Part shown: one piece after another, positions 37,020 to 41,734 of the stretch | Numbering within the stretch: the stretch's first letter is position 1 | Layout: every line of letters begins with the position of its first letter | Assembly (NCBI GenBank): GCA_048881705.1 | Contig: JBHLSH010000016.1 | Location: forward strand, 1-42,892 | Origin: Candidatus Heimdallarchaeota archaeon | GTDB taxonomy: Archaea; Asgardarchaeota; Heimdallarchaeia; Hodarchaeales; Hodarchaeaceae | Direction of reading: 5' to 3' | Length of the DNA: 42,892 nucleotides | Translations under genes and position numbers: made by a program | The notes under the pieces: model-generated | What the model was told of the DNA's origin: nothing | What the model saw: only the letters and a program-made list of their open reading frames with translations | The model's database searches: none

Positions 37020-37463
37020 ATGTTTAAATCAAACTTAGGTAAGATTATGCATTCCAGCTCAAATAATGAAATAAATACATCTGCCTCCGATCAAAGAAGC
37101 TTGCTCTTATGGGATGGAAATTGTGGATTCTGTAATCTAGCCAAGGGTATATTGAATGAGAAGGACAAATTCTCTCTAATAAGGTTCAGGAAATTACAGG
37201 ATCCAAAGCTTTCAATGAATGGATCCTATACAAATCGAGATTATGAGACTTTATATTTTATTTCAAATAAAGGGGTAAGATTCACTCATGCGCGCGCCTT
37301 TTTTGAAGCTATGGCGGTTTTGCCTGGCCTTTGGGGGGTAGCAGGTCGGGCATTTGCGAATAGGTTTTTTGGTTTCATTGGATTTCCATTTTACCTGTTA
37401 ATTTCGAAAAACCGAAAAAGGATTTCCCACTGGTTACGGTTAAATCTTGAAGATTCACTTTAA
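37020..37463 (+). CDS. DCC-family (DUF393) thiol-disulfide oxidoreductase
   Basis: LLWDGNCGFC motif, DKFSLIRF, and Y.LISKNRKRI. The start could be the later ATG at 37047. Confidence 0.85.
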   Translation: MFKSNLGKIMHSSSNNEINTSASDQRSLLLWDGNCGFCNLAKGILNEKDKFSLIRFRKLQDPKLSMNGSYTNRDYETLYFISNKGVRFTHARAFFEAMAVLPGLWGVAGRAFANRFFGFIGFPFYLLISKNRKRISHWLRLNLEDSL

Positions 37464-37592: not shown

Positions 37593-38768
37593 CTAACTAT
37601 CGAATGCGAAGTTTTTGTGTCTGTTAAGGGTGGATAACGGATGTCCAGAATCATAGGATTTTCTTAGATGAGATAGAGAAACATGAGTGTAGAGCTGGGT
37701 CGTTGATAGTGAAGCATGACCCAGAAGTTCCTGTATTACGCGGATATCAACCGCGTTGGATAGAAGATGGGTGGCAAATGCGTGGCGTAGAGTATGAGGA
37801 GTAAGTTTTCTGTCATCTAATCCAGCTAGCTTCTTATACTTTTTAACGATACGTTGAATGGAGCGTGGGGTTAGGCGAGTCCCCTTCTGGTTTAATATCA
37901 ATGCTGAATCCTTACGATCAAATTTGTTTGAGTAAGAAAGTACGTATTCGGCAAGAATAGGCACAAGAAGGTCTGGTATCGGAATTATCCGATCTTTATT
38001 CCCTTTCCCGTTTTCGACCCGGATGACTCGATTGCCAATATCAATATGTTCCATGTTCAAATTGCTGAGTTCTGAGACCCGTAATCCTGTACCGTAAAGT
38101 AGGTACAAAATAGTCTTGTCTCTAAGATTTACAGGACTGGAGAACTTTGTTAGCATCTCGAAAAGCGATATCGTACTCCTTTCCTCTATTGATTTAATCT
38201 CTGGCCTAGTCTGTAAAACTGACATAATCAGCTCAGGAATGGGAATTAAACTATTGACCAAGCCGTCGTTGTTTTCTACAAGGATTGTTTCGGTTGCAAG
38301 ATCGAACTGGAAGTTGAAACCCTTATTAGTATGGGGTAGATTAATTTCGCTTGTGATTAAATACAGGATTGAGGCATCCCGTTCTCCTCCGGGAGCTGCT
38401 AGGAGTCGAAAGACCTCCTCAACTGTAACAGTCTTTGGTAAAGATTTAGGTATTTTTGGAGACTCTATTTGCTCTACGGGATTATTAGTAATATAACCTG
38501 TTCTTCGCAGGTATTTATAAAACGACTTCAGAGCGCATATCTTTCTATGCAGACTTCGCGGAGCGTACTCCTTATCTCTCTTTAGAAAAAGCAGGAACCG
38601 GCGAATATCTGTGGTCGTTGCCTTTTCGATTTTCTTCTTCACCCCTGCTGACGATAAAGATTGCTCGAATAGCTCCAGATCATAGGAATATTCCTTAATC
38701 GTTTTCGGGGAATAGTTCTTCTCTACCTCCAGGAAAAGCAAAAACTCTTCAATACAGTTAGTTTGCAT
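37593..38768 (-). CDS. xerA: XerA/XerC-type tyrosine recombinase with an 86-aa internal insertion
   Basis: N-terminal EKNYSPKTIKEY..DL and RKICALKSFYKYL. Catalytic R (TGLRVSE), K (GKG), HxxR (PHTLRH), H (LGH) and Y (TQLYTH). ATG at 38768 preferred over 38849. Confidence 0.92.
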   Translation of the reverse strand: MQTNCIEEFLLFLEVEKNYSPKTIKEYSYDLELFEQSLSSAGVKKKIEKATTTDIRRFLLFLKRDKEYAPRSLHRKICALKSFYKYLRRTGYITNNPVEQIESPKIPKSLPKTVTVEEVFRLLAAPGGERDASILYLITSEINLPHTNKGFNFQFDLATETILVENNDGLVNSLIPIPELIMSVLQTRPEIKSIEERSTISLFEMLTKFSSPVNLRDKTILYLLYGTGLRVSELSNLNMEHIDIGNRVIRVENGKGNKDRIIPIPDLLVPILAEYVLSYSNKFDRKDSALILNQKGTRLTPRSIQRIVKKYKKLAGLDDRKLTPHTLRHAFATHLLSNAVDIRVIQELLGHASLSTTQLYTHVSLSHLRKSYDSGHPLSTLNRHKNFAFDS

Positions 38769-38879
38769 ATTACCAGCCAGCATACCAGGTATATAGAAGT
38801 ATGAACAAGATAAGACGTGGGATAATATCGACGTAGCACCTGAAGCCACTAAAACCGAACGAATCTGCGTCGAGAAAGG

Positions 38880-39416
38880 CTATTCAAAAATGCGGTTTGA
38901 TAACTTCACAATGCCAGCTTCTTCATCCCATGTAACAAGCTCAGCCCGATTAAGTTCATGGATTGAGTGTAGTACCACAGCTGCGGAGACTCCACTCGCT
39001 TTGGTCAGCTCTTCACGCGTCATTTCTGATTTATCACCGTGAAGTAGGTAAAGGATTTTCGCATGGGGTTGACCCGCGAAAACTTTTTCTAAGAGGGCAA
39101 TATAGATACCGAGTAATTGCTTAACATCGAGTGATGCCTCCTCTTTACCGGTCATTTCCTGATATAGTTCAGAGATCTTTTTGAGCTCGTTTTCAAGATT
39201 CATATAGTCAAATTCAAGTTGTTGGCGATGTAGATGAGCTTCCTCGAGCGCCTTTGCTCGTGCTTCGATTTCTTTTTCTTTAATCTCAATTTCTGTTTCC
39301 TTCGTTTCTAGTTCCTTTCTCATGTTTACAAGTTTCTCGTTTTGTAGCATAAGAGTAGACTTAACTCTCTCTATGGTAGGAATAATCTCATCAATATCCA
39401 GGGGTTCATCGCTCAT
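38880..39416 (-). CDS. Coiled-coil protein with C-terminal winged helix-turn-helix
   Basis: A heptad-rich E/K helix over about residues 15-90, then PHAKILYLLH...MTREELTKASGVSAAVVLHSIHELNRAELVTWDEEAGIVKL. Confidence 0.75.
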   Translation of the reverse strand: MSDEPLDIDEIIPTIERVKSTLMLQNEKLVNMRKELETKETEIEIKEKEIEARAKALEEAHLHRQQLEFDYMNLENELKKISELYQEMTGKEEASLDVKQLLGIYIALLEKVFAGQPHAKILYLLHGDKSEMTREELTKASGVSAAVVLHSIHELNRAELVTWDEEAGIVKLSNRIFE

Positions 39417-39707: not shown

Positions 39708-40649
39708 TTATTTCGAGGGATTGAAGAAAACTAGGTAAGCAAACTTGTCATATACTTCGGGGAGAGTATGTAGAGAAATCAAATCCCAAATCCTTCGTTT
39801 TTCATTATTTACAAGACCGACTTCTGAAAATCCCCATGAATTGCATATTTCTTGAATTTTAGCCATTTGCGAAGCAACGGAGCTTTTACCGCCCTGAGAA
39901 TTCAAGAACTTTGCAATTTTATAAACTGAAACGAGCACGCAGGGAATATTAAAGGCAGAGATTAGAAGCTCGAGCTTGGATAATATCTGTTCCCTTAGAT
40001 TCGCACCTAAATCGAGGTGTTGATCGTATTCAATCAAATCACCTAGGTTTACTCTTAAGATATCAAATGATGTCGGAAAGAAGTCGCTAACGTTACCTGT
40101 TGCCCCGATAGCTATTGCGTTTTTAGGCGGAACCGAGTTCTCTTCTTCCAAGGACAGCTGAAACGAGGGGGGAAGAATAATTGCTTTTGTTTCCAATCCC
40201 CTATCATCTCTCGGTTTATGCCTATGAATACTACTACTGATAAGATAATATGGCTGATAGGGTTTGAAGTCTAGTTCAGGATTTGAAGAAGTTTCGAATC
40301 TTAGGCGAGGAAGGACAAAAAAGTTGATGTTCGATCCAACAATTGAAATTCTTAGATGGCTTGCCAATTGAAAGAAAAAAGGGGCTGTTTTAAGACCTGT
40401 GGACCCGTCAATGAGATAGAGGGATTTTAAAGAGCATTCTTTCGGGGTCGTTTTCCAATTGTAGCTTTTCTCGGTAATTTTTCGGGTAATAATTGAGTAT
40501 TTGGGGATACCACTAAACTCTCGATAGAGCATATGGCTGTGCGTTCGAAAGAAAATGTAGTCTGGGGCACAAAGTAGCTTTATCCGTCGACCTTCTGAGA
40601 TAATTCCAGCTGATTCAAGTAAGCTATCCAACACGATTTCCGGTTTCAC
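39708..40649 (-). CDS. Hypothetical protein
   Basis: Long ORF with no recognised motif. The GTG at 40649 avoids overlap with dph2; the ORF track starts at 40748. Confidence 0.6.
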   Translation of the reverse strand: MKPEIVLDSLLESAGIISEGRRIKLLCAPDYIFFRTHSHMLYREFSGIPKYSIITRKITEKSYNWKTTPKECSLKSLYLIDGSTGLKTAPFFFQLASHLRISIVGSNINFFVLPRLRFETSSNPELDFKPYQPYYLISSSIHRHKPRDDRGLETKAIILPPSFQLSLEEENSVPPKNAIAIGATGNVSDFFPTSFDILRVNLGDLIEYDQHLDLGANLREQILSKLELLISAFNIPCVLVSVYKIAKFLNSQGGKSSVASQMAKIQEICNSWGFSEVGLVNNEKRRIWDLISLHTLPEVYDKFAYLVFFNPSK

Positions 40650-40714
40650 TAAAGCACTCTTATAATTTTTTTCCTTCTCGGTTGTATTTAGACGGAATAA
40701 CGGATGAAAGCAAA

Positions 40715-41734
40715 GTGAAAATCGATTATGACCTGGCCATTCCTTCATTAACGAAGACTATTCAAAAAAAGGGATGGAATAGAGTCCTTGTCCAGATGCC
40801 CGAGGGGATGTTGAACCATCCTCTCCAAGAAGTTCTCACGGCGTTAAAGGCATTGAACGTTACCGTATTCGTGGAAGGTGAGCCATCATATGGAGTTTGT
40901 GATCTTGCAGTTGATACTGCGATTGGGCTGAAGGTAGATGCGTTAATCCATTATGGCCACACTTCATTTGGTTTTGAACAGCGAGTACACAGTGCTGAAG
41001 GCATGATAGATGTGGTATTGGTTCCTGCTCTCATTGGGAATTATCACATTGATTTACCAGAAATAATTAAGAAGATAAAGGAGCTAGATTGGAAAAAGGT
41101 AGGACTAACTGCTACCGCTCAGCATATGATGTATTTACATAACATGAAAGATCAGCTTGAAGCACATCAAATCGAATCTGCCATTTCTCAGCATGGCGGG
41201 CAAATTTTGGGTTGTTATATTGGTAAATCCAAGACCGAATTCGGAGCTAACGATATTGATGGCATTGTAAGTCTTCACCCTGGGAATTTCCATACACGAG
41301 GATTATTGTTCTTAACATCTCGGCCGATTCTTCAGATTGATCCCATCACTGGTAATTTATCATTGTACACAATCTCAGAAAGGGATACGTTGATCAAAAA
41401 GAGATTTGCGGTAATTGAAAAGGCACGAAAGGCGACAACTTGGGGAATAGTAAGCAGTCTTAAACATGGCCAATGGCAACCAAATCCTCATAAACGTGCC
41501 TCCAGGATACTAAGTGAAGCGGGACTTAAATTTGTTGAATTAGTTGGAAAAACAATAACACCCTTGTATCTGGCCAATTTTACCTGGATTGATGCTTGGG
41601 TAAACACAGCGTGCCCCCGAATAGCTCTGGATGACGTAATCAGATATCACCGTCCAATGATCACATTCCAAGAATTTTTATATCTATTCGACCAAATCAC
41701 CTGGAACCAGCTTCTAGAAAGAGGATTCATGTAA
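40715..41734 (+). CDS. dph2: Diphthamide biosynthesis enzyme Dph2 (2-(3-amino-3-carboxypropyl)histidine synthase)
   Basis: VQMPEG, EPSYGVCD, IHYGH, GQILGC and TACPRI..DD give the three cluster cysteines. Start is GTG 40715 or TTG 40682. Confidence 0.9.
   Translation: MKIDYDLAIPSLTKTIQKKGWNRVLVQMPEGMLNHPLQEVLTALKALNVTVFVEGEPSYGVCDLAVDTAIGLKVDALIHYGHTSFGFEQRVHSAEGMIDVVLVPALIGNYHIDLPEIIKKIKELDWKKVGLTATAQHMMYLHNMKDQLEAHQIESAISQHGGQILGCYIGKSKTEFGANDIDGIVSLHPGNFHTRGLLFLTSRPILQIDPITGNLSLYTISERDTLIKKRFAVIEKARKATTWGIVSSLKHGQWQPNPHKRASRILSEAGLKFVELVGKTITPLYLANFTWIDAWVNTACPRIALDDVIRYHRPMITFQEFLYLFDQITWNQLLERGFM

Follow-up and report, generated by a model that had tools for sequence, protein, structure and literature searches.

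The window studied here is a stretch of 42,892 nucleotides, positions 1 to 42,892 of contig JBHLSH010000016.1 (GenBank assembly GCA_048881705.1) of Candidatus Heimdallarchaeota archaeon, from the order Hodarchaeales of the Asgard archaea. Its reverse strand encodes a Xer-type tyrosine recombinase of 391 residues (P0002), with an N-terminal core-binding domain and a C-terminal catalytic domain. At the start of the catalytic domain the protein carries 86 residues that are absent from its orthologues in related genomes. The first 58 of these residues (copy A) resemble the segment that follows the insert (copy B), which is the functional first half of the catalytic domain, and the other 28 residues form a variable linker. 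The coordinates of all these elements are collected in Table 1.

The insert as a copy of the following segment

Every NCBIfam model hits the recombinase in two stretches, with the break at the 86-residue insert. The multiple alignment has a single clean gap of 86 columns at this place in all 18 insert-less orthologues. The best one-gap alignment of copy A with copy B contains 19 identities in 57 columns, and BLASTP matches the insert to the remainder of its own protein with an E value of 5e-8. Two further proteins with such an insert are known from other assemblies, as described below. When the three inserts were aligned with their own downstream segments by the Smith-Waterman method, the scores were 64-102, against a mean of about 25 for shuffled sequences (standard deviation 4.6, maximum 58); the observed score was reached by 0 of 5000 shuffles in each of the three proteins, with z of 8-17. 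A profile of the 3 inserts, compared by hhalign with a profile of the 18 insert-less orthologues, gave a probability of 91.7% and an E value of 7.8e-7. The two profiles match in register, beginning at the RD motif and ending with the helix that follows IPIPxL (the RD-helix...PIL segment). The homologous motifs are spaced 86-87 residues apart, which equals the length of the insert and thus fits the prediction of a tandem event.

At the nucleotide level, copy A and copy B are 45% identical, compared with 27% for shuffled codons. Their third codon positions agree in 18 of 56 cases, near random, only 6 of the 19 identical residues are specified by the same codon in both copies, and the DNA of the two copies has no long exact words in common. 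An earlier note, made by reading this DNA alone, had described the insert as an in-frame, dead tandem duplicate of the catalytic domain's first half, retained with diverged codons. Its coordinates and reading frame for the insert and copy B are correct, its hand alignment of 19 of 57 identities with one gap was reproduced exactly, and the BLASTP, hhalign and shuffle results together with the 86-column gap bear out the duplication itself. The profile comparison for self-similarity that it had proposed as a check gave the positive hhalign result above, and the divergence of the codons is confirmed by the counts just given.

General family models do not see copy A. Pfam searches with the insert alone, with flanks and from all three proteins, returned no match even at an E value of 10. 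Copy A is therefore visible only to self-comparison and to profile-profile comparison. When 1.8 billion cluster representatives were searched with the insert by phmmer, its own cluster and one other protein (P0005) came up, and no other related cluster. P0005 is a protein of 508 residues with five PepSY-like repeats, and its similarity to the insert sits in a hairpin, insert NFQFDLATETILVENNDG against Y.YEIDAATGKILEKD, also given as Y.YEIDAATGKILEKD against FQFDLATETILVENNDG. We rejected P0005 as a homologue of the insert; its E value of 6.5e-6 is summed over the five repeats, and the likeness is probably a convergent one between beta-hairpins.

The core of copy A corresponds to the RD-helix, the Arg-I helix, the three-stranded sheet and the next helix of the catalytic domain. 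As the alignments suggest, the duplicated unit probably includes the short helix ahead of the RD motif too. The linker RPEIKSIEERSTISLFEMLTKFSSPVNL holds, as read from the alignments, a degenerate second copy of this helix, and the residues before copy B, LFEMLTKFSSPVNL (ILAKLATPASL in P0004), resemble the canonical EETLxLLxTPxNx. Since the short helix is seemingly present twice, the exact breakpoints of the duplication can not be fixed.

The full R, K, H-x-x-R, H and Y set of a tyrosine recombinase is supplied by copy B and the C-terminal half of the domain. In 91 homologues there is no variation at R230, K255, H325, R328, H351 and Y360 (P0002 numbering). Copy A has Leu opposite the Arg-I of copy B, and Asp opposite the Lys of the beta-hairpin. 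The codons agree with the earlier note on both substitutions and on the intact set in copy B, and copy A is, by this reading of its residues, catalytically dead. The core of copy A has a net charge of -3 to -9 and an isoelectric point of about 4.2; the values for copy B are 0 and 6.8. The earlier note had proposed, as putative functions of the extra subdomain, changes in site recognition, synapsis or partner-dependent activation. That copy A has lost basic residues argues against a new role in DNA recognition.

Apart from the insert, the protein is an ordinary member of its family. The catalytic domain matches PF00589 with 156.5 bits against a cutoff of 27.1. The name XerA, which had been given to the protein from its sequence, holds in that NF040815 (recomb_XerA_Arch) is the sole NCBIfam equivalog that it passes, with 259.9 bits against a cutoff of 220. 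It is weakened by the bacterial models, which score higher in raw bits yet stay under their own cutoffs (296 against 335 for XerC, 282 against 330 for XerD). When the genome (91% complete, 7.5% contamination) was searched with PF00589, the single match was the P0002 gene, and P0002 is the only tyrosine recombinase found in it.

Table 1. Features of the recombinase locus, in positions of the window
Feature	Position	Strand	Basis or remark
DCC1-like thiol-disulfide oxidoreductase gene	37020-37463	(+)	PF04134, E 2e-11
Xer-type tyrosine recombinase gene, 391 aa (P0002)	37593..38768	(-)	open reading frame translation, Pfam, NCBIfam
Open frame of the recombinase	37593-38849	(-)	reaches GTG at 38849
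Stop codon TAG	37593-37595	(-)	
Second half of catalytic domain	37677..37952	(-)	codons verified
Catalytic domain match to PF00589	37677-38165	(-)	E 7.2e-46, P0001 residues 230-391
Nucleophile Tyr codon	37689-37691	(-)	
Second His codon	37716-37718	(-)	
Arg-II codon	37785-37787	(-)	
First His codon	37794-37796	(-)	
Copy B, RDKTILYL...LVPIL	37953..38123	(-)	functional first half of catalytic domain
Lys codon AAA of beta-hairpin, copy B	38004-38006	(-)	
Arg-I codon CGG, copy B	38079-38081	(-)	
Whole insert, 86 aa, RDASILYL...SSPVNL	38124-38381	(-)	
Insert linker, 28 aa, variable	38124..38207	(-)	6/28 positions invariant
Copy A core, 58 aa, RDASILYL...SVLQT	38208..38381	(-)	dead duplicate (as read from its residues), acidic
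Asp codon GAC, copy A	38265-38267	(-)	opposite Lys of copy B
Leu codon CTA, copy A	38337-38339	(-)	opposite Arg-I of copy B
N-terminal core-binding (SAM-like) domain	38499..38753	(-)	PF02899, P0001 residues 33-117, E 1e-19
Start codon ATG	38766-38768	(-)	picked from orthologue alignment
Alternative start ATG	38781-38783	(-)	conserved in 3/3 insert-bearing proteins
178-aa gene directly upstream of recombinase	38880-39416	(-)	no Pfam match
346-aa open reading frame	39708-40748	(-)	no Pfam match

Distribution, age and constraint

A search of the genomes of 40 relatives found the full-length form in one other species (G001), as a protein of 391 residues (P0003) with 84% identity. In 19 further genomes of the 40 the query matches in two pieces, and residues ~154-236 are skipped. 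Among 83 species genomes of the class, the insert was found only in the present genome (G000) and in G001, the other 81 being without it. A third carrier was obtained by an insert-seeded search of 5.8 billion proteins. This protein (P0004) has 396 residues, is 57% identical in the region of the insert (residues 150-250), and was seen in two sequencing runs, ERR10503086 and ERR10503087. The insert is thus present, with 86 residues in each case, in three independent assemblies and samples, and is not confined to the assembly in which the earlier note saw it.

The gene itself is a regular chromosomal gene of the genus. Of the 21 other genomes of the genus that were sampled, 19 yielded a syntenic orthologue, one per genome. 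The insert-less orthologues from 18 species genomes of the same genus and order are 286-306 residues long and 64-70% identical to P0002 over the shared 305 residues. They share with P0002 the catalytic residues and the upstream neighbour, a gene of 178 residues, and differ from it by exactly the 86-residue insert. The conservation of the 178-residue gene beside the recombinase is the basis for regarding these 18 proteins as orthologous.

In a tree built from the shared columns, with the insert excluded and rooted against an outgroup of a different genus, the three carriers form one clade with 100/100 support, nested in the genus. The recombinase gene tree agrees with the grouping by genus and order. 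This topology points to a single gain within the genus, before the three lineages split. Because the insert is limited to one clade of three members and is absent from the 18 orthologues and from 81 of the 83 genomes, the duplication took place after the genus had begun to radiate. The description of the duplication as old can therefore be kept in part: the saturation of synonymous positions agrees with it, whereas on the phylogenetic scale the event belongs to one clade inside one genus. Synonymous divergence between G000 and G001 has already reached a dS of 0.5-0.7, and copy A diverged fast after the duplication. Separately, the public names within this one genus of the GTDB conflict with each other; the protein of G001 is filed under Thorarchaeota, and the nearest orthologues under Hodarchaeales, Heimdallarchaeota and Promethearchaeota.

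The ratio of non-synonymous to synonymous substitution rates (dN/dS, omega) between G000 and G001 is 0.08 for the N-terminal domain, 0.34 for the insert and 0.115 for the rest of the catalytic domain. The residues invariant in the three carriers number 91 of 129 in the N-terminal domain, 34 of 58 in the core and 6 of 28 in the linker of the insert, and 142 of 176 in the rest of the catalytic domain. Within the insert, synonymous changes per site exceed non-synonymous ones (Fisher p = 8e-4). Non-synonymous changes accumulate ~2.5 times faster in the insert than elsewhere in the protein (p = 4e-4), and the synonymous rates of the two parts do not differ. With an omega significantly below 1, the substitution pattern indicates that the insert is under purifying selection. 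Its residues differ by up to 48% among the three carriers, with no indels, frameshifts or stops. The motifs NFQF and SVLQT are invariant in the clade, and are not derived from copy B.

As to the neighbouring genes, the 178-residue gene stands at the same place, with 54-93% identity, in all orthologous loci of the genus that extend that far, and by this synteny it appears to be a conserved partner gene of the Asgard Xer. Its neighbours in the ESM Atlas are hypothetical proteins from Asgard archaea only, with weaker leads to winged-helix regulators of the MarR/TrmB type, and its N-terminal half has by eye the look of a coiled coil. The C-terminal part of the 346-residue reading frame is conserved too, with 33-47% identity, and most orthologous loci of the genus have it in the same relative position. 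The DCC1-like gene lies downstream of the recombinase and convergent to it, and was matched only in G000 and G001 among the loci fetched.

Predicted fold and a bacterial parallel

The structure of P0002 was modelled by AlphaFold2 (AF2) with an alignment of 91 sequences, giving a mean predicted local distance difference test (pLDDT) score of 79. A previous run with 20 sequences had given 70; the larger alignment improved the canonical parts and did not improve the insert linker. Searched with VIA-align, the model matches archaeal XerA 4a8e with Z 23.6 over 260 residues, 5hxy with Z 22.2 and the DNA-bound XerH 5jk0 with Z 17.8. The model thus has the two-domain clamp fold, made of a core-binding and a catalytic domain, with the core-binding domain at pLDDT 82-97.

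In the AF2 model, copy A is predicted to contain a helix at residues 129-141, strands at 152-156, 161-165 and 171-176, and a helix at 179-186. The predicted elements of copy B are in register with these, from a helix at 215-227 through strands at 248-251 and 260-263 to a helix at 268-280. Within the insert, the sheet has a pLDDT of about 70, and the tether falls under 50 at residues 189-197 and 206-211.

The catalytic domain of Pyrococcus abyssi XerA (4a8e) comprises residues 107-279 (PMC3646895). By sequence, the insert maps between residues 116 and 118 of 4a8e, and copy B aligns with the structure from residue 118 on. This puts the insert some ten residues beyond the beginning of the catalytic domain and shortly after the interdomain linker. 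The archaeal XerA proteins of P. abyssi and Thermoplasma acidophilum (5hxy) have the same two-domain fold as P0002 and all of its catalytic residues. The match of P0002 to 4a8e by phmmer has an E value of 7e-52. P0002 is like XerA also in passing the XerA_Arch cutoff and in being encoded by a single-copy chromosomal gene whose synteny is kept across the genus. It is unlike P. abyssi XerA in its 86 additional residues, the apparent dead copy of the half-domain that follows.

Another case of the same kind was met in bacteria. Among the best 120 full-length matches, the only other long protein was P0112, with 418 residues. P0112 and two related proteins, P0123 and P0124, are XerC proteins of the bacterial type from marine and other metagenomes (loci L021:4687-5943, L022:4630-5886 and L023:2005-3261), and are 58-60% identical in their insert. 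Their C-terminal motif is HPRA, and they are encoded in the context topA - 465-residue gene - xerC. Their nearest genomic relatives are insert-less XerC proteins of Bryobacterales/Terriglobia, with 43-47% identity.

As in P0002, the first part of the catalytic domain is present twice in these proteins, the insert, at the same junction, being a degenerate, in-frame duplicate of what comes after it. Of the two copies the downstream one is intact, and the upstream one has Lys in place of Arg-I and lacks the hairpin Lys. BLASTP self-comparison of P0112 did not detect the repeat, which emerged only from Smith-Waterman scores tested on shuffled sequences, from hhalign and from alignment to a relative that lacks the insert. 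The Smith-Waterman comparison of the bacterial insert with its downstream segment gave z of 8-11.5, hhalign gave a probability of 95.8% and an E value of 7.6e-9 over 98 columns, and the insert-less relative P0119 aligns with both bacterial copies. The bacterial unit is longer than the archaeal one, about 105-118 residues, as it adds the next strand and helix. The bacterial copy A is basic, with a charge of +3 to +8, whereas the archaeal copy A is acidic. Identity between the archaeal and bacterial proteins is only 36%, and each of them has many insert-less proteins as closer relatives, so that the two duplications are taken as independent. The sequences of this independent bacterial event indicate that the junction tolerates such duplications.

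Origin and possible role of copy A

We consider it probable that a tandem in-frame duplication left a dead copy A in an otherwise ordinary Xer recombinase. The sequence comparisons show a tandem, in-frame duplication of about 86 codons, which took place in the common ancestor of a small clade within one genus. The duplicated unit runs from the beginning of the catalytic domain, by way of the RD helix, the Arg-I helix and the three-stranded sheet bearing the Lys hairpin, to the helix after that. Copy B, the downstream one, has remained joined to the half that carries H-x-x-R/H/Y, keeping all catalytic residues, and the upstream copy A has lost Arg-I, Lys and most of its basic residues to become an acidic alpha/beta unit of 58 residues with a 28-residue tether. 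The canonical parts of P0002 are strongly constrained, and the enzyme presumably acts as an ordinary Xer recombinase, cleaving in cis by means of copy B and the C-terminal half. Copy A would stand outside catalysis and direct DNA binding, and would hang as a folded appendage from the surface junction just after the interdomain linker. Our best guess is that copy A is a constrained passenger in which a modulatory function is starting to develop, perhaps as an acidic flap close to the DNA-binding face or as a spacer with an effect on clamp closure. To any real modulatory role we give somewhat less than an even chance, and a merely tolerated module, kept foldable, comes close to an even one.

Several points weigh against this account. 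At 91% completeness and 7.5% contamination, a second recombinase might be present in the organism and unassembled. The insert is modelled at pLDDT 46-72 only, which leaves the position of copy A relative to the DNA unfixed. The dN/dS values come from one species pair and, for the insert, from 258 nucleotides, and an omega below 1 could merely mirror selection against misfolding of an essential protein. As the bacterial copy A is basic and not acidic, the two cases need not share a role. The literature searched held nothing on XerA or dif in Asgard archaea, and we know of no demonstration of chromosome-dimer resolution or of a dif site in any Asgard archaeon.

The narrow distribution of the insert, its highly variable linker and its ~2.5-fold higher non-synonymous rate would also be expected of a neutral remnant heading for loss, tolerated at a permissive surface junction and constrained only by folding. 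The independent bacterial duplication at the same site, which suggests that the site is permissive, and the low model confidence for the insert point the same way. This alternative is harder to reconcile with the absence of indels, frameshifts and stops across three lineages whose inserts differ at as many as 48% of residues, with an omega significantly below 1, and with the 34 of 58 invariant core positions, new motifs among them. We hold it to be unlikely, though a serious contender. On the other side, copy A could be a regulatory pseudo-half-domain that holds the sole Xer in auto-inhibition until it is displaced by DNA, by synapsis or by a partner. It could do so by competing with copy B for the C-terminal half, as two exclusive folds, or as an acidic flap over the DNA-binding face. 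What copy A still shares with copy B is mainly the hydrophobic core (RD..ILYL, I.VEN, IPIPEL..L), the catalytic and basic residues being lost; its isoelectric point of about 4.2, its omega of 0.34, and the invariance of NFQF and SVLQT, which do not come from copy B, agree with such a role. XerA is known to be controlled intramolecularly, the control element being the alpha-N helix docked in cis (PMC3646895). Against a regulatory half-domain, AF2 is highly confident in building the catalytic domain from copy B and offers no alternative packing, the basic bacterial copy A means that a DNA-mimic role is not general, and the very narrow distribution suggests no strong general advantage. We regard it as rather improbable. 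Less probable still is its general form, in which dead half-domain duplicates at the junction of linker and catalytic domain would be a recurrent, selected intramolecular regulator of Xer recombinases that masks or competes with the active half; it would hold a sole dimer resolvase off until correctly assembled, and would have been invented separately in the Asgard and the bacterial XerC clades.

Origins other than self-duplication fare worse. The low identity of copy A to copy B, only ~32%, and the several paralogous integrases of relatives in the genus could suggest that a piece of a different integrase gene, such as one on a mobile element, was recombined in. The motif spacing equals the length of the insert, however, and copy A scores 79-102 against copy B of its own clade and 35-70 against most other orthologues. 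No donor-like integrase was found among the 1.8 billion representatives, nor another PF00589 gene in the genome, and a foreign fragment is very unlikely. All carriers are metagenome assemblies, which could raise the question of an assembly artefact. Diverged versions of the same 86 codons occur in three independent assemblies and samples with a substitution pattern of the coding type, and on these grounds an artefact, an intron and an intein were rejected; no intein-like termini were seen in the sequence. Chance similarity is excluded by the shuffle tests and the profile comparison. We give this last group practically no weight.

Partial tandem duplications are known from protein engineering, where in 'alternate frame folding' proteins a duplicated domain segment could in principle let either copy complete the fold. 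Those constructs are made in the laboratory, whereas the duplication in P0002 is natural and has one degenerate copy. The catalytic domains of tyrosine recombinases are compact and very well studied. The literature searched on internal or tandem duplication in tyrosine recombinases yielded nothing relevant, and in it a natural in-frame duplication of a half-domain, selected and in the only Xer of an organism, is undescribed, as the earlier note had also supposed of this architecture.

The duplication would matter in different ways according to the role of copy A. Should copy A turn out to modulate activity, Xer recombination would have a new control element within the enzyme itself, in a lineage for which no FtsK-type activator is known to us, and copy A would be a natural pseudo-enzyme module born of partial duplication. 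The bacterial XerC clade would offer a second system for the same idea. If, on the other hand, the archaeal module is no more than tolerated, the beginning of the catalytic domain would be a permissive insertion site, possibly useful in recombinase engineering. The case also gives a measure of how fast a redundant half-domain may decay, from ~70% to ~32% identity within one genus.

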